NCBI GenBank assembly: GCA_963719365.1
Contig: OY970380.1
Coordinates: 590,903-654,902 of the forward strand
Direction: 5' to 3'
Length of the DNA stretch: 64,000 bases
Origin: Thermoanaerobaculia bacterium
GTDB taxonomy: Bacteria > Acidobacteriota > Thermoanaerobaculia > Gp7-AA8
The notes below the pieces were generated by a model. The model was not told the DNA's origin, did not search any database, and saw only the letters and a list, made by a program, of their open reading frames with translations. Below are positions 36,559 to 58,224 of this stretch, one piece after another; the stretch's first letter is position 1, and the number at the start of each line of letters is the position of its first letter. The position numbers and the translations under genes are program-made.

Positions 36559-36625
36559 CGACACTTCGCTACGAATGTTCCGCTCGATACAGGCGTCGTC
36601 AGTTTCGGTTTCGACCTGACCCCTT
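36532..36625. mobile_element. REPIN-like hairpin, right flank of RAYT gene
   Basis: Same arms as 35378-35471, with an inverted loop sequence. Contains the RAYT stop codon. Confidence 0.75.
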
Positions 36626-36644
36626 CGAGGGAAGGGAGGGGGCG

Positions 36645-38036
36645 TCACGCCGCGAGAATCGGATCGTGCCACGAGCCGCCGGGAAGGATCCGTTGCGCTT
36701 CCTCCGGTCCCCAGGTGCCTGGCTCGTATTCGTGGACGGGGATGTCGTGGCCGATGATCGGGTCCACGACGCGCCATTCGGCTTCGACCATGTCTTCGCG
36801 GGCGAAGAGCGTGGCGTCGCCTTTCATGGCGTCGCCGAGCAGCCGTTCGTACGGTCCGAGCTGACCGACCACGTTGCTGACGGCCAGGAGCTCGACGTTC
36901 TGCCCAGTCATCCCCTCCCCCGGTATTTTCGAGCGCACGCCGAGGGCGATGGCGACATCGGGGCCGAGGCGGAATCGGACGTAGTTGGCGTTGTCGGGAG
37001 TGAGCGTGTCGCCGCGAAGATCGATCAGCGGCGGTTGCTCGAGCTCGACGAGCACCTCGGTGCAAGTCGACCGGCAGCGATTTCCCGCGCGGATGTAGAA
37101 GGGAACGCCGGCCCAACGCCAGAGTCGCGATGTCGAGCCGCAACGCCGCGAAGGTCTCGACTTTGAATCGGGAGCGACGCCTGTCTCGTCGCGGTAGCCG
37201 CGAAACTGGCCGAGGACGACGTGGCTCGGGTCGATCGGCCGGATGGCATCGAGAACCTGGCGCGCTCGTCGCGAATCGCTTCGGCGTCCCGCGCTGCGGC
37301 GCCTCCATCGCCAGGTAGCTGACGACCTGGAGCAGATGGTTCTGCACGACGTCGCGGATGGCGCCCGTCTCGTCGTAGAACGCGCCGCGGCCCTGAATCC
37401 CGAAATTCTCGGCCATCGTGATCTGCACGCTCTCACGAAGTTGCGGTTCCAGACCGGCTCGAGAAACGAGTTGGCGAAACGGAAGTAGAGGAGGTTCTGT
37501 ACCGGCTCCTTGCCGAGGAAATGGTCGATGCGGAAGATGGCCGTCTCGTCGAAGACCGTGAGCAGTGCTGGGTTGAGCTCGAGTGCTGACTCCAGGTCGC
37601 GACCGAACGGCTTCTCGACGACGACGCGCGCGCCTTTGGCGCAGCCGGAGCGCGCCGAGCTGCGTCGGCCACGGTCGCGAACATGCTCGAGCGGAATGGC
37701 CAGGTAGTGCAGAGGGCTGCTCGGCGCTCCCGAGCGCCTGCCGGAGACGATCGAAGGTGGCAGCGTCGCGATAATCGCCGTCGACGTAGTGCAGCAGCGA
37801 GACGAGCTTCGCGAAGGCCGCTTCGATCGACGCCGCCGCCGTGTTCAGCGAGGCTGTTCCTCCCCCGCTCGCGCAACTGGTCGAGCGTCCAGCCGGCCTT
37901 GGCCACGCCGATCACCGGCACGTTCAGGGTGCCCGCGCTTGATCATCGCCTGCAGCGCAGGAAAGATCATCTTGTAGGCGAGATCGCCGGTGGCCCCAAA
38001 AAAGACGAGCGCATCGGATTGCGGGGCTGCGGTCAT
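36645..38036 (-). pseudogene. zwf: Glucose-6-phosphate dehydrogenase, disrupted by at least 3 frameshifts
   Basis: N-terminus MTAAPQSDALVFFGATGDLAYKMIFPAL. Middle segment [39 protein letters not shown]-terminus ...[14 protein letters not shown]...GPEEA. The pieces fall in three different frames that abut one another. Confidence 0.75.
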
Positions 38037-38139
38037 GAGGAGTGCTCCGGAAGATTTCGCATCGGGCGCGAAGGATAGCGCTATCACGAAAAACGGCCAC
38101 CTCGCGGGTGGCCGTTTTTGGTCGAACTGTTGTTTTCGT

Positions 38140-40233
38140 TTACCAGATCCGGACGCGATCCTCGGGCGCGATGTAGTTCGGTCGCCCGGCTTCACGTCGA
38201 ACGCGGCGTACCAGGCGTCGATGTTGCGCACGGCGCGTTGACGCGGATCTGTCCGGGCGAGTGCGGGTCGGTGACCAGCTGCTGGCGCAGCGCGTCGTCG
38301 CGGATCTTGCCGCGCCAGACCTGCGCCCAGCCCAGGAAGAAGCGCTGGTCGCCGGTCAGGCCGTCGATCACCGGCGCCGGCTTGCCGTTCAGCGAGAGCT
38401 GGTAGGCGTCGAGCGCCAGCAGTCAGGCCGCCGAGGTCGCCGATGTTCTCGCCCATGGTCAGCTCGCCGTTGATGTGCGCGCCCGGGCAGCGGGCTCGAT
38501 AGGCGTCGTACTGCGCGCCGAGCTTGGCGGCCTGCGCCTCGAACTTGCGCCGCGTCCTCGGGCGTCCACCAGTCGCGCAGCATGCCGTCGCCGTCGGACT
38601 TGCGGCCCTGGTCGTCGAAGCCGTGGCCGATCTCGTGGCCGATCACGCCGCCGATGCCGCCGTAGTTGACCGCCGGGTCGGCGTTCGGATCGAAGAACGG
38701 CGGCTGCAGGATCGCGGCCGGGAAGACGATCTCGTTCTTGCATCGGGTTGTAGTAGGCGTTGACGGTCTGCGGCGTCATGCCCCACTCGGTCTCGGTCGA
38801 CCGGCTTGCCGAGCCGGCTGCGACGGTAGTGCCCAGTCGAAGCTGCGCGGCGCGCTCGACGTTGCCGAAGAGGTCGCCGCTGATCGACCTCGAGGCCGCG
38901 AATAGTCGCGCCACTTGTCGGGATAGCCGATCTTGACGGTCGAAGCGTGCGAGCTTCTTCGAGCGCCTCGCGCCTTGGTCGCCGGCGCTCATCCAGTCCA
39001 GCGTTCTCGATGCGGCGCGTCCATGCGCCGTGCGCAGGTTGCCGACCAGGGCGTCCATCTTCGCCTTGGACTCCGGCGGGAAGTAGCGCGCGACGTAGAC
39101 TCGGCCGAGCGCCTCGCCGATCGCGCCGTCGACGACGCCGACGCCGCGCTTCCAGCGCTCGCGCTGCTCCGGCTGGCCGTGCAGGGTCTTGCGCGGAACT
39201 CGAAGCTGCGCGTCGACGAAGCGCTTGGACAGGAGGGCGCGGCGTCGTCGGCGACGTGGAAGGCCTGCCAGGCCTTCAGGGTCTCGACCGGCGTCTCGGC
39301 GAAGATCGCGGCGATCTTCGGGAAGGCGCGTGTTCTGCGCGACGATCACCCGCTCGGCGCCTGCCGAGTCCGGCGGCCCCAGGTAGCGCGTTCCAGTCGA
39401 AGCCCGGGGCGCTGCTTCTCGAGCTCGGCGACGGTCATCGGGTTGTAGGTCTTGTCGCGGTCGCGGCTCTCGGCCGGGTCCAGTGCGCCTCGGCGATCTT
39501 GGTCTCGAGCGCGACCACGATCGGCCGCGCTCTTCTCGGGCTCGGCCCAGCCGATGAGTCCGAGCATGTCGGCGACGTAGGCCTGGTAGCGCTCTTTCTG
39601 CGGCTTGAATTGGCCTCCAGGTAGAAGTCGCGGTCGGGCAGGCCGAGGCCGGCCTGCGAGATGTAGAGCGTGTACTTGTCGGGATTCTTGGCGTCGTCGC
39701 TGACACCCGCGCCAAAGAAGGCGCTGCCGAATCCGCGTCGGAGCTGCCCATGATGCGGGCGATGTCATCGCGCGTCTGCGCCTTCTTGATCTTGTCGAGA
39801 TGGGCTGGATCGGCTTGGCGTCGAGCTTCTCCGCGCGGCCTCATCGAAGTACGGCGGTAGACGGCGGCGACTTTCGCCTCGTCGAAGCCGGGCTTCAAGG
39901 TCTTGTCTGGCGGCCCAGCTCGAGCAGCGTATGAACGCGCGCCTCGGACAGATCGCCGAGGACTGCGAAGGTGCCGTATCCGGTCTTGTCGGCCGGGATC
40001 TGCGTCGTCGCTGCCCACTTGCCGTTAACGTACTTGAAGAAATCGTCGCCCGGTTTCACCGAACGGTCCATGCCGTCAAGGTCAACGCCCCAGGTTCCGT
40101 ACCGCTGCGCAGCGATAGGCGCCGCGGGCGCGGCAGGTTTCGCGTCTTCGGCAAACGCGGTAAAAGCAATGGTGGATGCGAACAGACTAAGTGCGATCAC
40201 ACTGATCGTGCGATCAAGACGTCTCATGCTCAT
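38140..40233 (-). pseudogene. M13 family zinc metalloendopeptidase (PepO/neprilysin-like), multiple frameshifts
   Basis: Signal peptide plus N-terminal [58 protein letters not shown] zinc motif. [10 protein letters not shown] and C-terminal NIDAWYAAFDVKPGD...YIAPEDRVRIW. These are scattered over all three minus-strand frames. Confidence 0.7.
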
Positions 40234-40361
40234 GCGTATTGTCCCTTCAGGTTGGATGGAGCGGTTTTGGAACGGCAGAATAACAAACCTGCGAGTGAAA
40301 ACCGGTCAATGACACAGTACGTTCACCGAGGTGGGTTTCATTGGCTCACTGTCGAGCACGC

Positions 40362-41317
40362 TCATTGACGTTCGTCGTAGCGCGTGCCGGCGACGGCCTC
40401 GGCCGGGACGGCCTGCTCGATCGCGGTGAACTCGTCGCTGCTCAAGTGGATCGTGAGCGCGCCGAGGGACTCTTCGAGCTGGAGTCGGGTGCGGGCACCG
40501 ATCACGGGAACGACGTTCTCGCCGCGAGCCATCACCCAGGCAATCGCGAGCTGGGTGGGCGTTACGTTGTGCGCCGCGGCAATGTTGTTGAGAGCCTCGA
40601 TCAGCTGCCGGTTCTGCGCGAGATTCTCGTCGCGGAAGCGCGGCATGTGAGCGCGGAAGTCGCTCTTCCCTTGCGGCAACGATCCGCTCAGCAATCCGCG
40701 AGACAGAACGCCGTACGCCGTAACGCCGATCCCGAGCTCACGCAGCAGCCGGAAAGATCTCCCGCTCCGGATTCCGGCTGATGAGCGAGTACTCGATCTG
40801 CAGGTCCGAGATCGGATGGACCGCGCGCGCGCGGCGGATCGTCTCGACGCCGACCTCCGAGAGGCCGATGGCGCGGACGTAACCCGCCTTCACGAGATCG
40901 GCGATCGCTCCAATGGTGTCCTCGATCGGCACGTCTGGATCGAGACGAGCGGGCCGGTAGATGTCGATGTAATCAACGTTGAGACGTTTCAGTGTGTAGC
41001 CAGAAAGTTCTTGACGGCGGCCGGGCGCCCGTCGACGCCGAGCCACGCAGAATCCGGACCGCGGAGCGCACCGAACTTGACGGAGAGCATCACTTCGTCG
41101 CGCCGGTCGCTCGGATCGCGCGTGCGATCAGCATCTCGTTGTGGCCCATCCCATAGAAATCGCCGGTGTCGATCAGAGTGATGCCGCTGTCGATGGCCTG
41201 CTGGATCGTGGCGACGCCCTCATTCTCATCCGCAGAGCCATACATCCCGGACATGCCCATGCAGCCGAGAGCGATGGGGAAGACTTCAAGGGATCCGAGG
41301 TGGCGGGAGTTCGTCAT
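40362..41317 (-). pseudogene. Aldo/keto reductase, split into three frames
   Basis: N-terminus LGCMGMSGMYG...[18 protein letters not shown]. Middle segment [19 protein letters not shown]-terminus VPVIGARTRLQLEESLGAL. Each piece is in a different frame. Confidence 0.7.
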
Positions 41318-41401
41318 CGGGCAACCATAGGACGGATTGACAAGAACTTCAAAAGCATTTCACGCGGAGACGCGGAGGACGCGAAGAAAACCTCCGTGAA
41401 C

Positions 41402-41677
41402 TTACATAAGGGATTTCAGAACCTTCTCATATTCGTCATGTGGACCAATCCAAAACCAGACCACTTCATCGCTCGCCAGCAGTAGGCCGACTGCTCGATA
41501 ACTGCGTCCCACGCGTGCGGAGACAAGACGTTTCGAGCCATGAACACGTTTGAAATGCAAGCCCGGATGACGCGGATTCTTCTGAAATAGCCGATAGGCA
41601 GCGCGAGCCCGCGAGCGTATCTCGGCTGGCAACGCAGAGAATTCTTGGCGAAACTCAGGAGCTGTATGCGATTTCAC
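41402..41677 (-). CDS. Type II toxin, RelE/ParE superfamily
   Basis: 91 aa. ...HFKRVHGSKRLVSARVGRSYRAVGLLLASDEVVWFWIGPHDEYEKV matches the RelE/ParE-like C-terminal pattern. 4-nt overlap with the upstream antitoxin gene. Confidence 0.65.
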   Translation of the reverse strand: MKSHTAPEFRQEFSALPAEIRSRARAAYRLFQKNPRHPGLHFKRVHGSKRLVSARVGRSYRAVGLLLASDEVVWFWIGPHDEYEKVLKSLM

Positions 41678-41898
41678 AACGTCTCGGGATCAAGCGGTTG
41701 TGTTCGACCGCGACGATGATCCTCAAGCGCTTTGTCGGCCATTCGCTCGATCACTTCGGACGGCTGCGCGAATAACTCGTCCCACTTGCGATCTGCGTCG
41801 ATCTCTGCCAGCAGCCAGGCGCCGATTGCTTCCTGATCTTCTTCGGGAAGCTCTTTCGCAGCGGCGTAGGCCTCATCGAGAAGGTTGCTCATCGACAC
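41674..41898 (-). CDS. Putative antitoxin (addiction-module component, small acidic helical protein)
   Basis: 74 aa, acidic (LDEAYAAAKELPEEDQEAIGAWLLAEIDAD...). Sits immediately upstream of, and overlapping, the RelE/ParE-like gene. Confidence 0.5.
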   Translation of the reverse strand: MSMSNLLDEAYAAAKELPEEDQEAIGAWLLAEIDADRKWDELFAQPSEVIERMADKALEDHRRGRTQPLDPETL

Positions 41899-41901
41899 AT
41901 T

Positions 41902-43944
41902 CTAGTCCTTTGCCGTCGCGGACATTGGCGTGCCGAGGAGCTTTTGGACGATCTTTTCGGCGGGGGCGAGGCCGTCGTTTGCCAGGATCTCGATTGCCAG
42001 GTCGCGCGCTTTTTCCATCAGCTTGATGTCGCGGACGATGTTGCCGAAGCGGAAGCGCATGGCGCCGGATTGGCGGGTGCCGAGGGACTCGCCGGCGCCG
42101 CGGAGGCGGAGGTCGAAGCCGGCCAAATCGAAGCCGTTCAATGTTTTTGCGAACTGCGTGAGGCGGTCTTTTTCGATGCCGACACGAGCACGCAGTACGA
42201 CTGCCTCGCGCCGCGGCCGACGCGGCCTCGGAGCTGGTGCAATTGCGAGAGGCCGAAACGGTCGGCATCGATGATCAGCATCATCGACGCGTTGGCGACG
42301 TCGATGCCGACTTCGATAACGGTCGTCGCGACGAGGATGTCGATCTCGCCGCGCTGAAGCGCGCATCGTCTCTTCCTTTTCGGCGCGGCATGCGGCCGTG
42401 AAGCATGGCCACGCGCCGGTTCGGGAAGCGCTTCGCCGTCGCCTCGAATCCGAGCGTCAGCGGTTTGAGGTCGGATTTCTCCGACTCCTCGATAATCGGA
42501 TAGACGATGTAGACCTGGCGCCCCGGGCGATCTCGGTGTCGATGAAGTAGATCACGCGTTCGATTTGCGTGACGCCGAACGCAGCGCGGTTTGATCTTCT
42601 GCCGGCCCGGCGGCAACTCGTCGATGACGGTGAGTCGAGGTCGCCGTACATCGCCAGCGCCAGCGAGCGCGGGATCGGCGTTGCGGTCATCACCAGAATG
42701 TCGGGCGTGTCGCCCTTCGCGAAAAGCCGCTGCCGCTGCTCAACGCCGAAGCGATGCTGCTCGTCGACGATGGCCAGTCCGAGGATTGAAGAACGACGCG
42801 ACTTCGAGGAGAGCGTGTGTGCCGATGACGAGTTGAATCACGCCGTCGCGAAGGCCGGCCAGAAGCGATGCGCCGCTCGCCCGGGGTCAGCGACCGGTAG
42901 CTCGTCGCGACGAGCGACTGGTCAACTAGTTGACGGATGCGTTTGGTAGTGCTGCTCGACCAGGATTTCCGTCGGCGCCAGCAGCGCAACCTGGTAGTCC
43001 GTTCGCACATGATGATCGCAGCGATCAGCGCGACGATCGTCTTGCCGCTGCCGACGTCGCCTTCGAGCAACCGGTACATCGGCTTGTCGGATTGCAGGTC
43101 GCCCGCGATTTCTCGGACCACCCGCTTCTGCGCGTTCGTCAATCGGAACGGCAGGATCCGCTTGACCTCGGCGCGATGGCGTCGTCGAGCACGATCTTCC
43201 GCGTCTTCGTCACCACTTCTTCGCTGGCGCGGCGCACGCGCAGCGCGAGCTGCAACGTGAAGAACTCCTGCAGGATGATGCGGACGTGCGCGCGCGAACG
43301 GCGTCCGAGGAATGCCTCGTCGAGCTGTGGTGGATGGTGGATCTGTTCCAACGCCGGCGCGAGATCGATAACGCCGAGGCGCTTGCGCAAGGCGGGATCG
43401 AGCGGGTCCTCGATGGATGGAAGCGCCGCCAGCGCGCCCGTAATGATCTGCCGCAACGCTTTCGGCGGGATGTTGCCCACCTTCGAATAGATCGGAACGA
43501 TGGCGCCGTCGGCTTCGTCGTCGCCTTCGAATTTTTCCCAATCCGCGCTCTCGACTTGGAGCTGACCGTATGCCGAGAGTTTCGGAGTCCCGAACACGGC
43601 CAGCCGGTCGCCGCGCTTGATCTGATCGGCGAGAAAGCCTTGATTGAACCAGACCAGCTTCACCGCGCCGGTCCCATCCTCCAGCACCGCTTCGAACACC
43701 TTCATCCGACGCCGTGGAGTGATATGCAGGTTCGCGTTCATCACCTTCCCGCGCAGGAGAACCGGCTTGTCCACATGACCGCCGAGGTCGACGATGCGGA
43801 CGGGGTGGCGGCGGTCTTCGTAGCGATACGGCAGGTTGTAGATCAGATCGCCGGCAGTCGCGAATCCCGCCTCTTCGAGTTGCTGGCGCGGCTCGGTCCT
43901 GCGCCGGGCAGCGCGCGGACGGGCGTGTCGGCGGTGATGGTCAC
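41902..43944 (-). pseudogene. recG: ATP-dependent DNA helicase RecG, disrupted by at least 4 frameshifts
   Basis: Wedge domain fragment (43139-43774). Helicase motif [17 protein letters not shown]-terminal helicase [18 protein letters not shown]...LHGRM. C-terminus RLRGAGESLGTRQSGAMRFRFGNIVRD. All pieces are present but in different frames. Confidence 0.75.
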
Positions 43945-43992
43945 GCGGCTATTTTGATGCAGGCAGGTCGAATCTACGCCGAGTAGACAGAA

Positions 43993-44340
43993 CTAGTCGA
44001 ACTGCGCCTTCATCGCGATCAGTCCGATCTTCAGCGCGTCGTTGTTGTGGATCGTCACCGGCGTGCCTGTTGGGATGCGCTGATCGTTGACGTAGGTGCC
44101 GTTGACGGTGCCGACTTCCTCGAGGATGCAGTAGTCGTTGCCGCTGCGGATGATCTTGGCGTGGCGGCGCGAAACGGAGCGGTTCAAATCTACAGGCGTT
44201 AGATCGATGTCGGGCAGAATGCCGGTGACCGGATCGGCGCGTCCGATCGTCGTTTCGTCGGCCTTGCTGAATGGAAAGGCGGCGCCGGTGGTGACGTCGA
44301 TCAAACGATGGCGATCCGTTTTTTCCGGCACAGCGCTCAC
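43993..44340 (-). CDS. FHA domain protein
   Basis: 115 aa. TIGRADPVTGILPDIDL...SRRHAKIIRSGNDYCILEEVGTVNGTYVNDQRI is an FHA fold. Confidence 0.7.
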   Translation of the reverse strand: MSAVPEKTDRHRLIDVTTGAAFPFSKADETTIGRADPVTGILPDIDLTPVDLNRSVSRRHAKIIRSGNDYCILEEVGTVNGTYVNDQRIPTGTPVTIHNNDALKIGLIAMKAQFD

Positions 44341-44769
44341 CGTGGAGTCGAGGAGCCGTGCTCGCTGTGAACCTCGCGGCCGACGAGGCGCTCCAACAGC
44401 GTGTTGGCCTCGCGCAGCCGCTTCGAGTATTTCCTAATGATACGAACGGCAACTTCGGGGTTCCTGCGCAGCATCTCGTCGAAGCGCGCCCCGTTGATGA
44501 CGACGGTGCGGACGTCCGTTGCGGCGATGGCGTCGGCCGTGCGCGGAACGCTCTCGAGCACCGCCATCTCGCCGAAGAAGTCGCCCTTCTCGAGGTGCGA
44601 CAGCGTGTGCGACTCGCCGTTGATGTGCTTGATGATGTTCACCTCACCCTCCTGGATGATGAACATCTCGGTGCCGGCTTCCCCTCGCGGAAGATCACGT
44701 CACCGGCAGCGTAAATCGACGAAGAGGAGTCCTTCACGAGTTCCTTCCCGCCGGTCGTTTTGAAAACGG
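44337..44769 (-). pseudogene. Cyclic-nucleotide-binding domain protein with a single -1 frameshift
   Basis: C-terminal piece FIIQEGEVNIIKH...GEMAVLE. N-terminal piece MKTVFKTTGGKELVKDSSSSIYAAGDVIFREG. The junction CGCGAGGGGAAGCC would read through (REGEAGTEMFII) if the G-run were one G longer. Confidence 0.65.
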
Positions 44770-44772
44770 TTT

Positions 44773-45680
44773 TCATCGCTGGACCGCCGGTTGCGCAAAC
44801 GTGAGCGTGAGGTCCCGGGTACTGACGCGGACGGGTACGCCGATCGGCAACAGGAGGTTGTCTCCCTGATGGCCGAACGGCAGATCGCGTATGACCGGAA
44901 TGTTGCTGGAGGCGAAAAATTCGTGCAGCAGCGCCTCGATCTCAGCGTCGCTCCCGCACCCTTTCAGCTTCCCGATGACCACAGCTCGGATTTTTTTCAG
45001 TCTACCGGACAGCCGTAAGTGGGTCAACATACGATCGATGCGATAGACCGGCTCGTCGACATCTTCGAAGAACCAGATTCCATCTTCGATCCAGAAGTCG
45101 TACGGCGTACCGGTCAGCGCGGTCGTCAGCGACAGGCAGCCACCAAACAAGACGCCATCGGCTTCGCCATCGATGACGACTCGGGCCCGCTCGAAACGAT
45201 GAACAAGAGGCGCATCGCCGGCGAGCATCGACCAGAACCACTCCTCGATCGCCGGCGACAGCCCCGGTGCCCAATCGGAGTTGAGCATCGGTTAATGAAA
45301 CGAGGCGATGCCACACTTGACGGCGACGGCCTGGTGAAGCGCGGTGATGTCGCTGAAGCCACGATTGGACGGGGGTTGGCGGGGATGGCGTCGTAGTCAA
45401 CGCCGTCGAGGATGCGCATGGCGCCGTAGCCGCCGCGAGCGAAGAAGAAGGCATCGAAGTCGTCAGACCTCAAGTAACGGTTCAACTTGCAAGGCGTCCG
45501 CATCGTCGCCGGCGAGATAACCGCGGTGGCGATGATCGATGTTCCAGCGAGCGTAACGCGCAGTCCTCGCTGCTCGAGCGTTCGCGCCGCCGCTTCGATG
45601 CGCGGTAGTTCGGAAGGGGATGACATGGCGAGGACGACGACGCTGCCATTTCGCGGCAGCGCGCGGGGGCGTATGAGCAC
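44773..45680 (-). pseudogene. LD-carboxypeptidase (peptidase S66, LdcA-like), 2 frameshifts
   Basis: N-terminus SVVVLAMSSPS...RGYLAGDDADALQ...ARGGYGAMRIL. C-terminus WFWSML...HEFF in a different frame. Confidence 0.7.
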
Positions 45681-45774
45681 GAGCGGAGAGAAGCAAGGGC
45701 GATGCTAGGACGTTTGTGAGAGCAGCCGGTGTGCTAAGCGCCGCTCGTTGTCGCCGCGAATGGCAGAAAGTGTC

Positions 45775-45965
45775 AGGGGGGCGGGTGTGGGGTGTCGGGA
45801 GTGGGGGGTGGGAACCGCGCAGCGTTAGTCGCGTGGTGCGGAGTGTGAGCTAGGTGGCTTGAAGTGCGAGCCGGGGCGTCCTTTGCGCGTTGGATGGCCC
45901 GGCAGTACGATGCGTGTCGGCGTGTTTTTACTCCCACCCCCGACACCCCACACCCTACCCCCCGG
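45775..45965. repeat. G-rich/C-rich long inverted repeat, upstream-side bracket of rnpB
   Basis: G-arm GGGGGCGGGTGTGGGGTGTCGGGAGTGGGGGGTGGG. C-arm CTCCCACCCCCGACACCCCACACCCTACCCCCC. ~115-nt loop. Confidence 0.65.
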
Positions 45966-45975
45966 AAAACAAAAT

Positions 45976-46362
<387 letters not shown>

Positions 46363-46394
46363 ATCGAACGTAACAGGATTGATGTTTGGCCATT

Positions 46395-46607
46395 CCGGGG
46401 TGTGGGGGTGGGGATTGGGGTGTCGGAGAAAAACCGAACCCGCTCCCCGGTTCGCGACGAGGTTGTGACCAATCACCTGATCGCGGGCGTGAGAAGCTTG
46501 CGCTGCGACGATCATATAGAGGGAAAACCATCGACCAATGAATCGTGATCCGAGACTCGCAGAAGGTCTTGGCTCCCACCCCCGACCCCCTACACCCCAC
46601 ACCCTCG
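46395..46607. repeat. G-rich/C-rich long inverted repeat, downstream-side bracket of rnpB
   Basis: G-arm CCGGGGTGTGGGGGTGGGGATTGGGGTGTCGGAG. C-arm GGCTCCCACCCCCGACCCCCTACACCCCACACCC. ~140-nt loop. Confidence 0.65.
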
Positions 46608-46674
46608 TCAACAAATACATCCCCTTAAATTGTTGCTGTTTCAGTCGCTTACAATCAATGTCGGCGCGCCGACA

Positions 46675-47670: not shown

Positions 47671-49023
47671 CAGCGTGGGATCTTGACGACGACCGGCGCC
47701 TTACTCAGACCGGACGGCATCGACTTCGAAGCGGTAATCGCCTCGGCACTCGTGTCGAAGCGGCCCCAGAAAACGCGGTAGCAAGGGCGTCCGCGGTAGC
47801 TGATGGGAACGAACCAGGCCTTGCTGCCGGCCTCACTCAAAGCTCGCGTGATTGACGCAGTCTCGCAGACGAGCTCGAACTGGACGGTGTAGGTGCCCCC
47901 CTTCTGCGCTGCGAAGTCCTTCGCCATGTTGTCGTACTTCGCGCGGGTAGCGTCGTTCGCCGGAGCAGTCGTGCTGGGAGTGTTCGTGATTGTCGGTGCG
48001 CCCGCGGCTGTGCGCTCGAGGTGGGTGCCGCTGGACGCCGCGGATGCTGGCGACGGAACCGGCGTGATCCCGTTCGCGGCCGTTCGAGGAACGACGGCTG
48101 GCTTTGTGGCGAGCGGCTGCTTTGGCGGAGCTGCCTTTGCTGCAAGTTGGGATGGTGCCGACGCAGTCGTGGTGGCAATTTGAGATGGCGACGTCTTTGG
48201 CGCTGTCGTCGTAGCAGGAGCCTGCTTCGGTGCGGAGGCTGTATTCGCTGGCGGTAGCGTTGACGTCGTCGCTGTGCTGGTCTTTGCCACGAGCGGGGGC
48301 ATCGGAACAGTGGATGTTGTTGCCACGGTCGGCGGCGTGGACGCCGCCGGGCCAGCCGGCGGGACGCCGGCGTTGCGAGCTTCGCTCTCTTCACCGGGAC
48401 GATCACTTCGGCGGGGGCGTTGCGGTCTTGCCACCATTGCCAAGCTGGGTAGGCGGCTCCGCCGAGGAGCAGAAGGACGAGGATCGTGATCCACAGCCCG
48501 GCCCTGCTCTTCCGCGGCGGCTTCGAGGCGGGTGCTGCGATCGAGTCGGAACCGCGTCCTTTGCTCGCACTGGCACGGCGGCGCGGCGGGCGGCCTCGAT
48601 CTGTGCTTCGTCGAAGCCCCACTGCGGCTCGGCTCCGAGTGCGGTCGCACTGACGCTTGCCGGCAGGAGTGGCGCAATCTCGGTTCCGGAATGATCGTCA
48701 TCATCGGGCTCATCCCAGACTGACTTAGACGTCGCTGGCGAGGGCGCAGGTGAATGCACCGGTGACGGCGTTATCGGAGTCGCCTGCACGGCGTCCCATG
48801 CTTCGCGGTCCACTTCCGGAATTTCCATCGTCGCATCCTCGGGGGACAAGCCCGCAATCTTCTTCCTGGGGAGCATCGGCAACTGGCGGCGGCGCGACGT
48901 CATCGAGAGTAAAGTCGGGATTTTCGACGTCCCAGGGCGTGGCAGACGCCGCCCAGAAACCTCATGTTCTGCTGGAGGTATATCCAGACGAGTTACCAGC
49001 TTCAGCAGTCGGAGAGCCTCCAA
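47670..49023 (-). pseudogene. SPOR-domain (peptidoglycan-binding) membrane protein, frameshifted
   Basis: C-terminal SPOR domain TYTVQFELVCETASITRALSEAGSKAWFVPISYRGRPCYRVFWGRF. Pro/Thr/Ala-rich linker. Transmembrane segment LWITILVLLLLGGAAY in a second frame. Acidic cytoplasmic N-terminal piece in a third frame. Confidence 0.6.
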
Positions 49024-49069
49024 CAGTTTGTAGACATTGAAGATATCCTTGCCGGACTGCGCCGCAACA

Positions 49070-49681
49070 TCAGCGGCCGTGTTGCTTCCCGTCGATCTTC
49101 GCGACGATCTGTTCCGCGTCTTCGTTCAGGCCGAGGCGGCGGAAGGCATCGTCGAAGTCCGGCGACTTCTCGAAGATCGCGTTGCCGCTCTCCATCGCCT
49201 GCTCGGACTTCGTTCGATCGGTATCCGTCACCACCAGCTCCACGATGATCTGCGCCAGCGGGAAGAGTGTCCCCTCCTCGCGTTTCGGCAGGTAATCCTC
49301 CACGATCGTGTACGAACCGCTCTTCCAGCCGATGATCGAACGAAGGATGCCGATGACCTGGACGCGGCGAGCCCAGGTCAGCTCCTTTCGGGTGATGAAG
49401 CCGAGGCCTAGGAGCGCGTCGCCGAGCGTCTCGCTTTCCTTGCGCTTGGCGAGCGCCTGCTTGACATGCTCGCGCGTGACCTTGTTGGCGCGCAGCAGGA
49501 TTTCGTCAACGGCGTCGGTGCGATCGTTGGTCGACGCGGAGAGGACGTCGCCGTTTTTGAAGTAGACGATCTTGATGATGCCGTCGCTCTCGAAACGGAT
49601 CGCGCCGGTGAACTGCTCGCTTCCGAGCTCGACGAGCCGCTGAATCAGATCGATCTCGCCGATTTCGCCTTCGAAGCTCAT
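49070..49681 (-). CDS. DUF4388 domain protein (possibly the N-terminal part of one frameshifted gene continuing into the SPOR protein)
   Basis: LIQRLVELGSEQFTGAIRFESDGIIKIVYFKNGDVLSAS is typical of DUF4388. After the stop, the reading continues in another frame with no intergenic gap (…KIDGK | …DIFNVYKLLEALRLLK…). Confidence 0.55.
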   Translation of the reverse strand: MSFEGEIGEIDLIQRLVELGSEQFTGAIRFESDGIIKIVYFKNGDVLSASTNDRTDAVDEILLRANKVTREHVKQALAKRKESETLGDALLGLGFITRKELTWARRVQVIGILRSIIGWKSGSYTIVEDYLPKREEGTLFPLAQIIVELVVTDTDRTKSEQAMESGNAIFEKSPDFDDAFRRLGLNEDAEQIVAKIDGKQHGR

Positions 49682-49888
49682 TCGTCCCCGCCCTTTAATC
49701 TAGGCGTGATCGATTATCGCATGCTGTTTTGGGGGGTGGGTGGAGGCGTCGTGCAGGGGACGCTGCCGCCGCCGATCACGGGAAGTCACAATTCGTTCGA
49801 CATCTGATCATCAACCACCGACGCCCGGCCAGACCCCAATCAGGCCTTCCCTCCCTCCCGCCGTCCTCTGCGATCCGGCCCCCCCTAC

Positions 49889-51706
49889 TCAGGCGTGCAG
49901 CTCGTCGTACAGCGTCTGGCCCACCTTGCGTCCGAGCACATTCATCAGGTCCTGCGCGGAAGCTTGTTTGACGCCGGAGACGCTGCCGAAGCGCTCGATC
50001 AGGAGCCGCCGGCGCTTTTCACCGATGCCGGGCATGTCGTCGAGCGCGCTGTGCAGACCTCTTCGAGCGGCGCCGGCGATGGGAGGAGACGGAGAAGCGA
50101 TGCGTCTCGTCGCGCACCATTTGCAGCAGTTGGAGCGCGGGATCGCGCGTTCCAGGCGGATCGGCTCCTCGCGATCGGGAACATAGATCTCCTCCTCGCG
50201 CTTCGCCAGGCCGGCGATCGGGATCTCTTCGATGCCGAGTTTGTTCAGCGCCGCCAGCGCAGCGTTGAGCTGTCCGCGGCCGCCGTCGATGAGGATCATG
50301 TCCGGCAGTGACTTGTTCTCGTCCATAAGCCGCCGATACCTGCGATCGACTGCCTCGGCCATCGAACGAAAGTCGTCCGCTCCTTCGACCGTCTTGATGT
50401 TGAACACCCGGTACTGCTTCTTGTCGAACTTGCCACGGTCGAGAACGACCATGCCGGCGACGGAATCAGTTCCCTGGATATTCGAGATGTCGAACGATTC
50501 GATGCGATTCATCTCTCTGTCGTAGCCCAGCACCTGCCCAAGTTTCTGTGCAGCGATCTGCAGCCGGTCCTGCGTCGATTTGCGGAAGCGCGACTCATGC
50601 GACAGACGCGCGTTGCGGTTGACGAGTTCCATCCGATCGACGCCTCTCCCGCGCTGCGGAACGCGCACTCCACCTTGCGGCCGGCCTGTTCGGTGAGCCA
50701 CGCGGTCAGCAGGTCGCACTCCTCGACCTCGAACGGGATCAACACCTCGGGCGGAATGAACAGATTGTCCTGGTAGTAGCGCTGCAGGACCTCGCCGAGG
50801 AAGTACGTCGGCTGGTAGTCGTCGACCTTCTCCCAGAACAGCTCGCGCCGGTCGACGACGTTGCCGTCGCGGATGACGAAGAGCTGCACGGCGACGTCGC
50901 TCCCCTCTTCGTACAAACCCCAGACGTCGGCATCCTCATCATCCGCCGAGGACACCTGCTGCTCGGCCTGGATGCGCTCGACGGTACGAACGAGATCGCG
51001 GTAGTACGTCGCCATTTCGAAGTTCTCGCTCTCAGCGGCGCTGATACATCCGCCGCGTCAGCCGGTCCTGCAGTTCCTTCGTCTTGCCGCCGAGAAAGAG
51101 GACGACGTCGTCGACCATGTCGCGATAGAGGTCCGGCGTCGTCAGGCCGACAACGCACGGCCCGAGGCATTGGTGCATGTCGGAGTAGAGGCAGGGCCGC
51201 GGAAATGCGTTCTTGCCGAGCGTGATTTCGAGATCGCAGCTCCGCAGCTTGAACTGGTCGGCGACGAGCTTCAGCAACCGCCGCGCGGTACCGGCGAAGA
51301 ACGGGCCGTAAAACAGATCGCCCTTCTTCCGATCGAGCCGCCGCGTGAAGACGACCCGCGGGTAATCCTCGGACATCGTGACCTTGATGTACGGGTAACT
51401 CTTGTCATCGCGAAGCAGGATGTTGTAGCGCGGCTGGTTCGATTTGATGAGGTTGTTCTCGAGGAGGATGGCCTCGAGCTCGTTGTTCGTCGTCACGAAA
51501 TCGATGGTGTCGATCTCGTTGATTAGCGACATGGTCTTGCTGTCGCGCGCCCCGCGTCCGACCAGATACGAGCCGACGCGGCTCTTCAGATTCCTCGCCT
51601 TCCCAACGTAGATGACCTCACCCTCGGCATTCTTGTGCATGTAGACGCCGGGGCGGTCGGGCAGCTCTTTCAGCCGGGTTTTGAGCCGTTCGAAGCGGTC
51701 GGACAT
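49889..51706 (-). pseudogene. uvrC: Excinuclease ABC subunit C, disrupted by at least 3 frameshifts
   Basis: GIY-YIG N-terminus PGVYMHKNAEGEVIYVGKARNLKSRVGSY. UvrBC-interaction region AAESENFEMATYY. C-terminal RNase H-like plus HhH region (IPIAGLAKREEEIY...GIGEKRRRLLIERFGS). The total span of 1818 nt equals an intact uvrC. Confidence 0.8.
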
Positions 51707-51963
51707 GAGCAGAAGTGGAACAAGTTACGGGTGCGATTGTCATCCCGACGGAGGGTCATTCTGCTGACTGGTCAAGTAGTTGACGAGTCAGCGGGGCGGA
51801 GACGAGCCAGAGGAGTGCGGACGTCTCGTCCGCGGCGGCGAGGCGTCCTCGCCTCGGCGTTGGGGAGCTGGAAGGCTGATGTCACCCTGCCGGATCATCG
51901 GGCGACCCCCCATCACCGATGGGCGAGGACGCCCATCGGCCGCAGGCGAGACGCCTGCACTCC

Positions 51964-52589
51964 TTAAGTCAGGACGCGAGTCTGCCCAGAAATCCCCCGC
52001 TGCTTCGCGAAATCGAGCGTCCACTCGTGGCCGCCGTCGAAGACGCAGGTCTCGACCGTGGTCACGGCGCAGGAACCGAAGGTCGTTCTGCAGCTTTGCC
52101 TCGGTGTACCACTCCTCGCGCGTCCCCCGTCCGATCAGGACCGGAGGCAACGTCGGACTCGAGGAACGACCTCCGGCGGAATGTCGCCGCCAAGGGCGAT
52201 GAGTCCTGTCGCGGCCGAGCGGGCGGCGGCGCGATACGCCATGGCCACGCCTTGCGAGAATCCGAGGAACACGAGTTGCTGCGGTTGCGGAAACTGCTCG
52301 ACGACGCCGGACGTAGGCAAGGTTGTCATCGATGGCCAGTTCCCGATCTGGCTCGTCATCCACGACGCCACGATCGCTCCCGTCCGATGCATATAAAAAG
52401 GATGGAGCGCCTGCACAGCGACGGTCGTCCACGTCTCGATCCCGGGATCTGCTGCAACTCGGCGTTCTGCACCTCGGCGTTTTCGCCGTAACCATGAAAG
52501 CCGATCAGCAGATGTTCCGCCGGACCGCGCCGAGCGATGTAGCGGCCATGAACGGTTGCGGGAATCGTGTGGACTTCAAGGTCGGTCAT
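51964..52589 (-). pseudogene. Phospholipase/carboxylesterase family alpha/beta hydrolase, at least 3 frameshifts
   Basis: N-terminus LLIGFHGYGENAE. Nucleophile elbow LVFLGFSQGVAMAY. C-terminus VFDGGHEWTLDF. Each piece is in a different frame. Confidence 0.6.
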
Positions 52590-52618
52590 TCGCGAATCGT
52601 AGCTACAATGCGCCCCGC

Positions 52619-53361
52619 GTGTCGCGCCTGACTCTGGTCGTCCCCTGCTACAACGAAGAGCGACGGCTCGATGTGGAAGCGTTTCGTGATCTTTCGGTCG
52701 CAGGCCACGACGTCGATTTCCTCTTCGTCAACGATGGCAGCCGCGACGGAACGCTGCGTCTTCTGCAGATTCTCCGCGATTCCGATCCGCGGCGTTTCGC
52801 CGTCCTCGACCTCGAGAAAAACAGCGGCAAAGCGGAGGCGGTGCGACGCGGCTTCCTGGCCGCGCTGGACAAAGCCCGGACTACGTCGGCTTCTGGGACG
52901 CCGACCTCGCCACTCCCCTCGCCGAGCTTCCCGGCTTTCTCGAGATCCTCACGACGCGCCCATCGATCCACCTCGTCATGGGCGCCCGCGTCCGGCTCCT
53001 CGGGCGCGAGATCAGCCGCCGCCCGGCCCGCCATTATTCGGCCGCGTCGGCGCGACGCTCATCTCATCGAGTCTCGGTCTGGCGGTCTACGACACGCAAT
53101 GCGGCGCGAAAGTCTTTCGCAGCAGCGACACATTGCGCGACGTTTTCTCCGCCCTTCCTCTCCCGCTGGATCTTCGACGTCGAGATCATCGCCCGCTACA
53201 TCGTCCGCTGGGGCCGCGATGCCGTGGCCGGTTCCGTCTACGAGTTACCGGTCATGCGCTGGCACGACGTCACCGGCTCGAACGTGAAGTCGCACGACTT
53301 CCTGCGCGCGCTGGCCGATCTCTGGAAGATCAGGCGGGCGTATCGGAAGAGGAAAGCGTGA
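52619..53361 (+). pseudogene. Family 2 glycosyltransferase (polyprenol-phosphate glycosyltransferase-like), 2 frameshifts
   Basis: LTLVVPCYNEE...FVNDGSRDGT. DxD region. GLAVYDTQCGAKVFR. C-terminus WIFDVEIIARY...VYELPV. Spread over three plus-strand frames. Confidence 0.65.
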
Positions 53362-53485
53362 AGCCGGGTCACTGGCCGAATTCTCACGCGAAGGCGCGAA
53401 GGCGCGACGACCAAACGGCAGACTCTTGAACGCTTAGTTCTTCACGCCTCGGTCTTACGCGTGAGACACTTTCCCGCGTCACGGC

Positions 53486-55657
53486 TCACGGCAACGCGAT
53501 CGACTCCGTTCCAACGTTGAAGAAGGAATCGACGGCGCGGACGATCACGAACTTGCCGGCGGCGGCGCTTCGTTTGATGCGGTAGGTCTCGTTGGGAGAG
53601 TCGCCGATGCCATCGACGGGGGTGAGGCGGATCCACTTTTCGGCGTCGCCGAGTACTCGACTTTCCCGATTGGTGAGCGCTTGTCCGACACGTGGATGAC
53701 GACCTCGTCGCCTTCGTTCGTTGCCGTGATCGAGGGCGGCGTGTTGTCCACGACGAGCTGGATTCCTTCTTTGACGTCGGTGTAGGGACTGTCGGGATTG
53801 TCCTGCGCGTCGCTGACGGACAGGCGCAATTCGTAGTTGCCGTCGGGAAGCTGCGAGGTATCGAAGTTCATCGACGACTCGTCGAAGTTCTCGCGCAGGC
53901 GAAGCCATTTCTCGCTCCCCACTTTGCGGAACGAGAGCGTGTAGCGAAGGGCGTCGCCGTTGTCGTCGTGCGCGCGCCAGGTCACCGTGCGGAAACCGCG
54001 GCGATAGACTTTCTTGCCTTGCTCGTTCCGGTCGCGCGGCGTGTCGAGGCTCGTGAAGATGCCGTATTCGTCGGGATTCGTGGCCTCGACGACCTGCGGC
54101 GACTGCGGGTAACTGCCGGTGATGTAGACAACCGCCGGCTCCTGCACGACAACCGTATCGATCACCGGCGCGACGTTGCGATTCATGAACGCAAGCGTGA
54201 CCTCGTCGACCGAAACGTTGGCCGCGGGTTTCGGCATTGTCAACTTCCACTGCACGTAGCGTCCGGCCGGAACATCGACCGGGCCGTCAGTGGCAGTTGA
54301 TGCGGCGCTCCATCCACTCCAGGTCGCGTCAGGTGTGCGCGTGTTGCCGGAGCGGAATGCGATGGCGATGTGACCTTCGCCGAGGTTGTCGCCGTCGATG
54401 CGGTAGTGCCCGAAACGGGAGAAGCGCTCGACATCTTTCGCAGCCGACCGGAACTCCGCTTTCGACGACGGACCATTCTCCATGCGGTAGACCGCCCCGC
54501 TGTTCGTCGTTGTGATCAGAGTCTGCCCGGCGACCGTCGAGATCGAGACGACCTGCTTGTCGGGAACACTGCCGACGAGCGAAACCTCGCCGTCATTTAA
54601 CTGGTAGATGCGGCCTTGCGGGCCGGTGGCGAGGAGGATTGATCCGTTCGGACCGCCGGTGATGCTGTACGCCATCTCGTGCTCGAACTTGCGAACGAGC
54701 TCCACAAAACCGTCGGGATTGATTTTGTAGATTTCGCCGCTGCCGGCGGAACCGGCGGACGAGTCGTCGATGCCGATGCTGACTTCGACGCTGCCGGTTG
54801 GCTCTTCCTTTTTCTGTTCGCCGGATGACGCGCTCGCGGACGTTGACGACGCGGCCGCCGTCGTCGTCGCGGGCTTGGCAGGCGCAGCTTTCACCGGCGC
54901 TGCCGAGGGCAGGACGTTGCTTGCCGCCAACGCCCAGCCGATGCCGTTTGCATCGACGTAAATCGAAGAGATCTCGGACAGCGGCGAGTCGTACAGCGCG
55001 TGCGCGCCGCCGTCGGGACGGATCTCGTAAATGCGTCCTTTCGCCGAACCGCCGGCGAGCAACGTCCCGTCTTTCTTCACCGCCAGACAACGAAGATGCG
55101 TCTCCGGCGAGTCGAAGAGAACCTTCCCTTCGCCTTTCGGTGTCACGCGAAAAAGTTTGCCGTCGACGCCAGTGGCCACGGCGAGGTCGCCGTTCGGGAG
55201 GAACTCCATCGGCCCAGATGTAGGCCTGCTTCGGATCGTAAAAGACGGTCGCCTTTCCGTCGTTCGGATCGACGCGGTAGACCTTTCCGTTCGGCGAGCT
55301 TCCAACAAACACCGCCCCATCATGAAATGCCACCGCATAAACCTCGGGCTCCGGCGCCGTGTAGATCGCCTTCAGCTCGGTGCCGCGAAGGCGGTAGACC
55401 TTCCCTTCGTTGCCGGTGCCGAAAAAGTGATCGCCGTTCGGCGCGCCGGCCTGCGAGAGAACGAAGGGATCAGTGAACGTGGCCACTTTCTTCAGCGAAG
55501 GCCCGGGACGAAGCTCGCCGCGCGAGGTGACGGCAAAGCCTTCGATGTCGCCGGCAAGGAAGTCTTCGGCGTTGCGAACCCGCCAGAATTGCGGCGCAAC
55601 AGCGAAGAGGGAGGAAGCTGTGAACAGCGTGACTGCGAGCGCGACGAATCGGCGCAT
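53486..55657 (-). pseudogene. Large secreted protein with beta-propeller-like repeats, frameshifted
   Basis: Signal peptide MRRFVALAVTLFTASSLFAVA. Repeated ...DG.L..A....GK.YRV/I... propeller-like units. The frame breaks near 55200 and 53640. Confidence 0.5.
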
Positions 55658-55693
55658 TGAATTTCCTTTGCTACAAGAATGTGAGGCCGGGAT

Positions 55694-55865
55694 GGGAGAC
55701 AAGGGATTAGAGACAAGAGATCAGAGCAACCTTGCGAGTTCTGAGTTCTCCGATTGCTGCTCGTAATAGTACGTTGGGAAAATGAGTGACCCTGCGCATT
55801 TCGACGGAGATCCGAGCATTCAGGTCACTGATCCGTGGTCTCTGGTGTCTCTGATCTCTGCTTTC
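55694..55865. repeat. Purine-arm/pyrimidine-arm long inverted repeat (AGAGATCAGAG motif)
   Basis: GGGAGACAAGGGATTAGAGACAAGAGATCAGAGCAACC at 55694-55731 versus CTGATCCGTGGTCTCTGGTGTCTCTGATCTCTGC at 55826-55865. ~95-nt loop. Lies between two minus-strand genes. Confidence 0.55.
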
Positions 55866-57688
55866 AAATTGCAGGCTTCACATCCAGATCGATCTTCACG
55901 ACGCCATCGACGATGTAGCCGAGCGGATGGGCGATGTGTTGTGCGGCATGGTAGCGGACGGGAGCTTGTGGTCCGTTCGATGTATCGCTGCTGACGATCG
56001 CGCGCATGGTCGGCGGAAGATTCGGGAGGTAGACGCCGGCCGTGACCGCGCCGTCGGTCTGTTCGTAGAGGCCGAGGGTGAGCTCGGTGGAGGGGCGAGC
56101 GGCGAAGAACGGCGATCACCTGATCGAGACTGCGCGGATCGGGCGGGACGAGCATGAAGTCGACTTGATTCAGAACCGAGCCGCTGCCTACGAGAAGGTA
56201 CGCGGTGCCTGCTGCCTGATCGTCGGGGATCTTCACGTCGAACGTGTCGACGAACGCCTCGCCGCGGTACGGCTTGAGCACGGCCCGAACTTTCACTGTG
56301 TCGCCGGCGTGGATCCGTCCATTCGACGGCATTTCCAGCGAAGCCTCGAGCATCTTGGCGATCTTGAGGTCGTCGGTGTGGCGGAAGTGAATCTTCACCG
56401 ACTCGATGTCGGCGGAGTGAAACTCGTTCGACATCACGTAGCCGGCGACGACCGCGAGATACGACGGGATGGCCTGCCGCGCTTGCGCACCCGCCCAACC
56501 TTCGCGAAGCACGATCGGCTCGGGATAGCCCTTGATCTTGATTTCGGATTCGAGCATCACCGTTCGCTCGCCCGCGGCGCGTTGCGCGCTGGCGACGACG
56601 GTGTCGGCGGCCATGGCCAGGATTAGCGGCGTGAGCTGCGAATGGCGCAGAACATCGACGTGATACTTCTGCGCGACGCCGCTTCCTTCGACTTCGAGGT
56701 CGACCGGGATCATGTCGGCCTTCTCCCCCATCACGCCCATGATGCCGACCGCGCGGTCCTGCCGGAACGCGCCAACGACCGCGCCGGTGTTGGCGAATTT
56801 GAACGAACTGGCCAGACTCGGCATTACGCCAACGATCTCCGACTTCGCCATCGGGAACGCGACGACGCCCATGTCGAGGAAGGGATGGCCGAACGCATAG
56901 ACGCGATCACCATCGATGTAGGTGACGGTTCCTGTTGCCGCGACGTTGAAGTCGCCGCGAAGAAGTACCGCGCCGATTGCGTCGCCGGCGGCGAACTCTT
57001 TGTTTGCCGGAATCACATTCGTGGTCGATGTCGATGACGCGCCCGCGGGCACGGGCATGAAGCCCATCGGATCGAGGTACTTGCCGAAGCGGCCGAGGGT
57101 GTCAGGCGCAAAGCTCGACATCGAGAGAGGAACGGCGATCGGCTTGGCGCCGCCGAGTGACGATGCGGGTGACGCACCGGCGAGGCCGCTCATCATCAGC
57201 TCGAACTTCTCCGCTGTCTTGTGTTGAATCATGGCGTCGAGAAACTCGGCGCCGGTCATGCGCGGCGTTGCGGCGGCTAGCACGCCCATCGGCGCACCGT
57301 CGACCTGCGCGATCTTGAGCATTTCATCGATCGGCGTGATTCCTGCGATCGATTCCTTCGCGAACTGCCACGAGTACGCGAGAGCGCCGATCACTTTTCC
57401 GTCGATGTAGATCGGCGATCCGCTCATTCCGGCGATGACGCCGGCGCGATCGACGACGGGGCTGGATACTTTCGCGAGGATCAAATCCTGGCCGGGCGCG
57501 ATGTTCTGCAGGACGCCGGTAATCTCGACGTCGAAGCGCTCGAGCCTGGTGCCATCGAACACGGTTTCGCCGTATCCGTGCATGCCCTTACGGACCTGCG
57601 AGAGCGGCATCGTTGTCGTAGCGGCCGAGGCCGTTGAAGCGACAAGAGTCAACAGCGCGACGGAAAGGGAGAGGACGATTCGCTGCAC
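55864..57688 (-). pseudogene. S55 (SpoIVB-like) serine peptidase, one frameshift near 56100
   Basis: Signal peptide (GTG start, MQRIVLSLSVALLTLVASTASA). GMSGSPIYIDGKVIGALAY serine-protease motif. The last ~85 codons continue in another frame (…FFAARPSTELTLGLYEQTDG…VKIDLDVKPAI). Confidence 0.6.
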
Positions 57689-57730
57689 GCGAGGTCTAAC
57701 AGTGTCGTTCCTCGGCGCTATTTCGTTTTG

Positions 57731-57767
57731 TTGGGGTGTCGCGGTTCGGGGGTCGGGCGTCGGAGAG
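57731..57767. repeat. G-rich arm of a split inverted repeat enclosing the vapBC module
   Basis: TTGGGGTGTCGCGGTTCGGGGGTCGGGCGTCGGAGAG. Its reverse-complementary partner lies ~700 bp away at 58474-58507. Confidence 0.5.
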
Positions 57768-57805
57768 CTCGTCTCCGATTCCTCACATTCGCGAACGCGC
57801 ATTGC

Positions 57806-58224
57806 TCACGGTAGCCTCTCGAAACCGGCTTGCGTGAAGTGTTGATCGAACGCAAGCGCCGTCGTGATGGCAAGCCTGCCCATCAGCACGAAGGAAATAC
57901 AGTCGGTGAGTGAGTAGGTCTTGTCTTGATGGGTCTGAAGGTACTCCCATGCCAATTGGAATAGATCGTCGTCGACGTGCACGAGATTGACGGATGGCTC
58001 TGAATGAGGCGGTTGCCGACTTCGACTGCCTTGTCGTGAAGGCCTCGGCTGTTGAGGAACGTGACGACCTCGTCAAAGACGTAGGAGGTTGTTACGAGCT
58101 CTGGAAGGCGGACGCGAAAGGTGCGCCAATGGGCAATCGCGGATTGGTGGTGTTGGTCGTTTGCCAGCTCAAGCGCCAAGAGATAGCCGGTGTCCAGAAA
58201 TACGGCTTCATGCCTCGCTGACAT
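57806..58224 (-). pseudogene. vapC: PIN-domain toxin VapC with one frameshift near 57980
   Basis: N-terminus [26 protein letters not shown]...[15 protein letters not shown]-terminus in another frame [58 protein letters not shown]. Confidence 0.65.

Follow-up and report, generated by a model that had tools for sequence, protein, structure and literature searches.

In the 64,000-nucleotide stretch of contig OY970380.1 analyzed here (hereafter the window), a block of ~19 kb at positions 37,067–56,100 carries ~95–105 indels of one or two bases, which hit 13 protein genes and rnpB, the gene for RNase P RNA, as well as intergenic DNA. The contig, 5,889,301 bp long, belongs to a Thermoanaerobaculia bacterium. 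We are highly confident that these indels are uncorrected consensus errors of the deposited assembly and that the organism's own genes are intact. The block is read as an artefact because it lies in synteny with related genomes, its indels are private to the window, no evolutionary footprint accompanies them, rnpB is damaged along with the protein genes, a near-identical second contig (contig_25498) contradicts the indels that it can test, and the broken products are confined to the deposited record. The block is not a real biological feature; what it offers is a warning about the quality of a publicly available genome.

The first indel is at 37,067, inside zwf, and the last artefactual ones are at 56,098–56,100; indels were absent across ~42 kb of flank. 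Besides one +5 and one +3 event, all indels were 1–2 nt in size. A codon model, built from 13 long open reading frames (ORFs) of the flanks and applied as a seven-state Viterbi path, changed frame on the same strand every 100–300 bp from 36.65 to ~45.6 kb and more sparsely to ~56 kb; in the flanks, frame changes were confined to gene boundaries. Two doubtful flank switches also part complete, different Pfam domains: the one at 14.6 kb separates PanE from an ABM monooxygenase, and the one at 21.15 kb separates a Cys/Met PLP enzyme from homoserine dehydrogenase. A profile of the longest open stretches was uninformative at the window's 62% guanine–cytosine content, where spurious ORFs are long. 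Per-gene frameshift counts came from frameshift-aware protein-to-DNA alignment against intact orthologues, and eight flank genes treated in this way had no internal frameshift. Indel density was ~14/kb at 37.1–40.0 kb, ~7/kb at 41.9–43.9 kb, ~2.5/kb at 46.6–51.7 kb, ~8/kb at 51.9–53.2 kb and ~0.9/kb at 53.5–56.1 kb. These results bear out the original prediction, made from the letters of the window, that nearly every gene in the block is frameshifted between clean flanks. They also redraw its scale: the damage is real, but it does not fill the predicted 36,645–58,224, and the predicted ~30 frame changes fall short of the count by roughly threefold. The block and its genes are as follows.

37,067–56,100, no strand: error block, with ~95–105 one- or two-base indels private to the deposited assembly
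36,645–38,036, minus strand: zwf (glucose-6-phosphate dehydrogenase), 13 frameshifts from 37,067 to 37,933; 91% identity to P0179 after frame restoration
38,142–40,233, minus strand: M13 metallopeptidase, 28 frameshifts, with insertions dominating 38,422–39,518; stitched gene free of internal stops
40,325–41,317, minus strand: aldo/keto reductase (AKR), 5 frameshifts
41,402–41,898, minus strand: ParE-like toxin (41,402–41,677) and antitoxin (41,674–41,898), both free of frameshifts
41,904–43,944, minus strand: recG, 14 frameshifts; ratio of nonsynonymous to synonymous substitution rates (dN/dS) 0.08–0.10 after restoration
43,995–44,776, minus strand: cNMP-binding and FHA protein, a single protein of 261 aa, 2 frameshifts at ~44,675 and ~44,352
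44,775–45,680, minus strand: ldcA (S66 LD-carboxypeptidase), 3–4 deletions
45,976–46,357, minus strand: rnpB (RNase P RNA), at least 7 private indels
46,675–47,109, minus strand: NYN/YacP-like protein, frameshift-free, with a private +3 insertion near 47,005
47,108–47,670, minus strand: DUF4126 membrane protein, 2 events (+5 at ~47,250 and −1 at 47,168)
47,672–49,681, minus strand: DUF4388/PatA_N protein with a Pro/Thr-rich linker and a SPOR-like tail, 5 frameshifts
49,891–51,706, minus strand: uvrC, 4 frameshifts; dN/dS 0.06
51,974–52,589, minus strand: esterase (Abhydrolase_2-like), 7 frameshifts
52,619–53,371, plus strand: family-2 glycosyltransferase (GT2), 3 frameshifts
53,488–55,657, minus strand: beta-propeller protein, 2 indels at 53,648 and 55,211
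55,866–57,610, minus strand: S55 (SpoIVB-like) peptidase, two single-base deletions at 56,098 and 56,100 (scored as 1 frameshift)

The gene identities proposed earlier were upheld by Pfam scans of the relatives' orthologues for M13, AKR, RecG, S66 LdcA, NYN, DUF4126, DUF4388, UvrC, GT2, S55 and the beta-propeller protein, and the zwf fragments of the window itself match Pfam G6PD_N and G6PD_C. The list of intact genes fared less evenly. The ParE-like toxin, its antitoxin and the NYN gene are indeed free of frameshifts, but they alone escape, and rnpB, FHA and DUF4388 are damaged: FHA is the C-terminal domain of the broken 261-aa cNMP–FHA protein, and DUF4388 is the N-terminus of a broken protein that in relatives is a single chain of ~670 aa. 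The NYN protein has 144 aa in the window against 143 aa in every relative, and its +3 insertion, though in frame, is probably a consensus error too. In the ENA contig, which is otherwise clean (L143 among our numbered loci, 7,491–9,444), the DUF4388–SPOR gene is called as two ORFs of 417 and 159 aa; this contig may have an error of its own in the low-complexity Pro/Thr-rich linker.

The nearest relatives of the window are uncultured soil Thermoanaerobaculia (Acidobacteriota), with 84–94% protein identity for a RecG fragment and 96–97% for the S55 peptidase. We projected blastn alignments of 17–60 related loci onto window coordinates and called an indel private where at least 80% of at least four aligned relatives agreed against the window. 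By this measure the block contains 72–75 private frameshifting indels, each backed by 80–100% of 4–35 aligned relatives. With each of 12 relatives as the focal sequence, the same pipeline returned 0–3 private frameshifting indels apiece. Among the flanks, the only private events at 30.4–34.7 kb were +3 and +9, and the same projection found no private indel at 58.5–64 kb.

The indels carry no evolutionary signature. Given bacterial mutation spectra, ~100 natural indels should be accompanied by neutral substitutions numbering many hundreds, and by a few stop codons as well; no such accompaniment is seen. The restored translations of the M13 peptidase, recG and the esterase had no internal stops, and the other genes were likewise without real in-frame stops; the sole stop in the ldcA alignment sits between two adjacent deletions modelled as one event and is a modelling artefact. 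The earlier statement that in-frame nonsense substitutions are missing thus holds after frame restoration. A dN/dS comparison with the flanks, also proposed earlier, shows that selection is not relaxed: against the nearest relatives, values were 0.03–0.30 in the block (recG 0.08–0.10, uvrC 0.06 and S55 0.06) and 0.05–0.12 in the flanks. Private substitutions made up ~0.8% of block columns that are invariant among relatives and were uncorrelated with indel density; one 500-bp bin, for example, had seven indels and no private substitution. Moreover, the damage is indifferent to coding, affecting rnpB and intergenic DNA as well as protein genes. The rnpB of the window is 382 nt long and scores 241.5 bits, against 392–393 nt and 264–267 bits in four relatives (10 nt shorter and 23–26 bits lower).

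These observations weigh against in-situ pseudogenisation, in which the organism or a subpopulation of it would have lost zwf, recG, uvrC, ldcA and rnpB function through an indel burst confined to this segment. Such a history has to accommodate the lack of nonsense mutations, the lack of excess substitutions, the unchanged dN/dS and the damage to an essential RNase P RNA. A variant, in which the indels are real and a subpopulation's 19-kb segment was hit by a very recent, indel-only burst, for instance through error-prone gap-filling or repair synthesis, appears highly improbable. If it were true, recG, uvrC, zwf and RNase P RNA would have been inactivated before substitutions accrued, and the assembler would have caught a dying or relic lineage.

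Other assemblies of the locus bear directly on the same question. A second contig, contig_25498 of ENA assembly ERZ25039542 (38,633 bp; L142), is 99.87% identical to window positions 53,488–58,972, with three mismatches and four gap positions. The four gaps coincide exactly with indels private to the window (53,648, 55,211, 56,098 and 56,100), which are thereby contradicted by a near-identical sequence. All genes on contig_25498 are intact, from S55 through UvrC, RecG and AKR to M13. The repaired beta-propeller protein is 100% identical to an intact 723-aa gene on this contig, and one Leu codon at 56,098–56,100 repairs S55 to a 582-aa protein that is an exact database entry on contig_25498; the broken 596-aa S55 product is recorded only on the deposited 5.89-Mb contig.

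The distribution of the other products points the same way. All nine broken ORF products tested were found only on the deposited contig (NCBI/ENA) and none of the nine in the Logan assembly of run ERR11594404, in which four of six flank products were present (Fisher p ~0.011). Two Logan contigs from this run match the flanks, at 99.96% over 61,568–64,000 and at 100% over 57,125–59,838, and each is only 2–3 kb long. That all nine fragment products are already on record for the deposited contig also confirms the expectation that annotation of this block would be fragmented. Exact look-ups of NYN, FHA, the antitoxin, RelE, the N-terminal part of UvrC and the N-terminal part of DUF4126 gave no match, but a cluster listing later turned up several of them; the empty look-ups thus stem from gaps in the index or from a differing start codon and do not mean that the proteins are absent. 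A search with the stitched M13 peptidase returned no intact same-strain copy, the best match having 78% identity.

The vapC gene at the right of the block provides a built-in positive control. It lies beside vapB as follows.

57,806–58,224, minus strand: vapC (PIN toxin), −1 frameshift near 57,995, outside the artefact
58,208–58,417, strand not stated: vapB, adjoining vapC

The vapC frameshift is present base for base in a Logan contig (L141) and in contig_25498, and repairing it yields a full-length PIN domain. Since two other assemblies reproduce it, this frameshift is genuine and separate from the artefact block, and vapC is probably a real toxin pseudogene; its earlier inclusion in the damaged block was mistaken. 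Thus, a real frameshift recurs in other assemblies, but the four testable indels of the block do not. For in-situ pseudogenisation, the genuine vapC lesion next door counts in favour, as do the presence of all nine broken products in the deposited record and the tendency of the indels, described below, to shun homopolymers, unlike classic sequencing error. Set against these are a 99.87%-identical contig without any of the four testable indels and the lack of broken products from a Logan assembly whose flanks match at 99.96–100%, in addition to the missing mutational footprint. We therefore consider it very unlikely that the organism lost these functions.

The position of the block is equally informative. 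It occupies an orthologous, syntenic locus in ~30 related Thermoanaerobaculia contigs, and relatives are colinear over the junctions from flank to block to flank (L004 over 30.6–34.7 kb and 38.1–53.9 kb; L082 over 46.6–64 kb). Because it is colinear with both flanks in relatives, the recG, uvrC and rnpB of the block are the orthologous copies in their ancestral place. The original prediction had offered, as its biological alternative, a segmental duplicate lying between REP-like repeats and decayed into pseudogenes, in which case recG, uvrC and zwf would have intact paralogues elsewhere. A repeat-bearing element does lie at the left edge.

35,248–36,626, plus strand: RAYT-like Y1 transposase, left neighbour, in one frame and flanked by REPIN-like hairpin doublets at 35,373–35,475 and 36,531–36,626

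The RAYT gene and both doublets read cleanly, and the first indel follows ~440 bp beyond the right doublet. The predicted sharp boundaries at repeats are therefore loosely true on the left (REPIN 36,531–36,626, ~440 bp off), but on the right the errors thin gradually and end at 56.1 kb, where there is no repeat. A duplicate would gain further room from the scope of the comparison, which covers the 64-kb window and not the rest of the genome. It is nonetheless opposed by the ancestral position of the block, contiguous with both flanks in many relatives, by unrelaxed selection (dN/dS 0.03–0.30, like the flanks), by the repeat-free right end and by the single-copy rnpB inside. We regard its probability as next to negligible, and the idea is refuted as far as one window allows.

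We then characterized the error spectrum. Consensus sequences from Nanopore, 454 and Ion Torrent typically have their indels concentrated in homopolymers, and the original prediction had placed the damage there. Instead, 34 of 44 single-base deletions (77%) and 26 of 33 insertions (79%) fall outside any run, where ~58% and ~52%, respectively, are expected from composition and simulated random indels; if anything, the indels are depleted in homopolymer runs. At the G-run that had been singled out (44,675), the frame could be repaired within the run but need not be. Events of like kind, insertions or deletions, tend to follow one another (runs test z = −2.3), insertions dominating 37.65–37.93 kb and 38.42–39.52 kb and deletions most of the remainder. 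Insertions are also enriched at the junction beside wobble positions (16 of 27, versus 31% in simulation), and several look as if both alleles had been kept at a site that varies among relatives, although this is suggestive only. The clustering and the wobble-junction bias fit a consensus built from few or mixed reads. Deletions fell on columns variable among relatives in 29 of 44 cases against a 38% background, a figure we do not rely on because gap placement absorbs nearby mismatches. Simulation alone lifted third-position calls from 33% to 42%, and when judged by that null the codon-position excess of the deletions (20 of 38) does not reach significance.

Two further candidates were rejected. 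Programmed frameshifting or recoding is ruled out by ~100 events without a shared motif that also occur in RNA and intergenic DNA. An altered window sequence is ruled out by the nine of nine broken products on the public 5.89-Mb record.

How the consensus errors arose can be narrowed down with contig_25498, which is ~89% identical to the window at 38.1–53.35 kb and then 99.87% identical at 53.49–58.97 kb. The switch coincides with the intergenic region between GT2 and the beta-propeller gene (window 53,354–53,488; L142 5,488–5,815), where contig_25498 carries an extra 80-aa FitA-like RHH gene, and it marks either a recombination point or a strain-switch point. Error density drops ~ninefold at ~53.4 kb (from ~8/kb to ~0.9/kb), just where the identity of contig_25498 jumps from 89% to 99.9%. 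By inference, the window comes from a long-read-only metagenome assembly of an uncultured soil Thermoanaerobaculia bacterium, since so large a contig from soil points to long reads. Related metagenome-assembled genomes (MAGs) of its clade come from Microflora Danica, a Nanopore-only project that assembled reads with Flye --meta --nano-hq and polished the assemblies with one Medaka round (PMC12313526). In the scenario to which we give about an even chance, two closely related strains would overlap at this locus. Contig_25498 represents the locus cleanly; reads would be split between the strains or mixed from both, the main contig would be poorly supported over 37.07–56.10 kb, and a single polishing round would have failed to correct a consensus of low or mixed support. 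In outline, the comparative and second-contig evidence supports the earlier proposal that the cause is technical and lies in weak support for a stretch of long-read sequence.

Another technical route would lead to the same kind of artefact: in a hybrid or scaffolded assembly, accurate contigs could have ended at REP elements and the gap between them been filled with raw or barely corrected long reads, or about two 10-kb polishing chunks could have been skipped. The sharp left edge near the REPIN, the indel-only damage with local runs of insertions or deletions and a length of ~19–21 kb, which would correspond to one read or to about two polishing chunks, all agree with this route. However, density varies ~15-fold within the block, in step with how far the second-strain contig diverges, which a uniform fill would not do; the right edge is gradual and without a repeat; and the flank-matching run yields contigs of 2–3 kb, with no sign of long accurate short-read contigs. 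Overall, we consider a filled gap or skipped polishing possible but unlikely.

Several points weigh against reading the indels as consensus errors. They avoid homopolymers, which is atypical of polished Nanopore consensus, and substitution errors are not detectably raised, though a raw-read-like consensus might show them. For 37–53.4 kb, the references are relatives of only 80–94% identity, so that the case there is carried by comparison and selection. The ENA contig and the Logan run may draw on the same reads as the window. The presumed Nanopore, Flye and Medaka origin is deduced from the size and naming of the contig and from related MAGs, and the whole case is built on assembled sequence. 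The repaired DUF4126 and cNMP–FHA proteins and the long-start NYN protein are missing from the protein collection, which is uninformative.

The interpretation as consensus error also has close parallels. In long-read genome and metagenome assemblies, whether from Nanopore or PacBio CLR, indel and frameshift errors are the target of frameshift-aware software, proovframe among it (bioRxiv 10.1101/2021.08.23.457338); for Nanopore MAGs they have been discussed as well (PMC9262707). Like such errors, those of the window are indel-only, split genes into fragments that abut in different frames without loss of sequence, yield restored proteins under frameshift-aware alignment and sit on a multi-megabase MAG contig. 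Unlike typical long-read indel errors, which are genome-wide, they are concentrated in one 19-kb block, are not centred on homopolymers and reach ~14/kb. The locus likewise resembles strain-heterogeneity artefacts, with a second 38.6-kb contig that is 99.87% identical in part and ~89% in the rest, and with error density shifting where identity shifts; it differs from known cases in that one shared assembly or split reads can here only be inferred. The many adjacent frameshifted genes, DNA-repair genes included, recall Mycobacterium leprae and the decay of recent obligate symbionts. Genome decay is expected to bring nonsense mutations and larger deletions along with frameshifts, and to raise dN/dS. 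Unlike decay of the M. leprae type, the block lacks nonsense codons, relaxed dN/dS and excess substitutions, is local, extends to RNase P RNA and has a near-identical intact copy.

The practical consequence is that a public, near-complete 5.89-Mb MAG contig has 13 corrupted genes, including recG, uvrC, zwf and ldcA, in addition to rnpB. Automated annotation turns these into truncated genes or pseudogene calls, as illustrated by the nine of nine tested fragment products that have already entered protein databases, and inference of metabolic or repair pathways from this MAG would wrongly score the affected functions as lost. More generally, long-read MAG errors can be local, homopolymer-avoiding and coincident with second-strain overlap. 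Because they are local and avoid homopolymers, genome-wide quality metrics and homopolymer-aware polishers can miss them.

The neighborhood of the block also showed some structural variation among relatives. The 4.86–53.4 kb segment is inverted with respect to many related genomes, with L008 and L084–L105 joining the 4.8-kb side to the 53.4-kb side; the orientation found in the window is common to L004, L082, L083 and L142. An accessory segment at 34,715–41,400, comprising RAYT, zwf, the M13 peptidase, AKR and the ParE-like toxin–antitoxin pair, is absent at the site in L006–L017 and partly present in L002–L005 and L143. The arms of the REPIN-like doublets around the RAYT gene carry GGGTCAGGTCGAAACCGAAAC, and GGGTCAGGTC/GACCTGACCC hairpins like those flanking RAYT are also found in intergenic DNA at 59,802–59,902, 29,500–29,581 and 9,630–9,885. 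C-rich intergenic repeats of the CCCACACCC/CCCGAC type, ~36–50 nt each, occur at 9,031, 16,690, 24,997, 45,924, 46,566 and 58,474. The rnpB gene sits between two of these copies, and an inverse, G-rich one is found upstream at 45,776–45,805.

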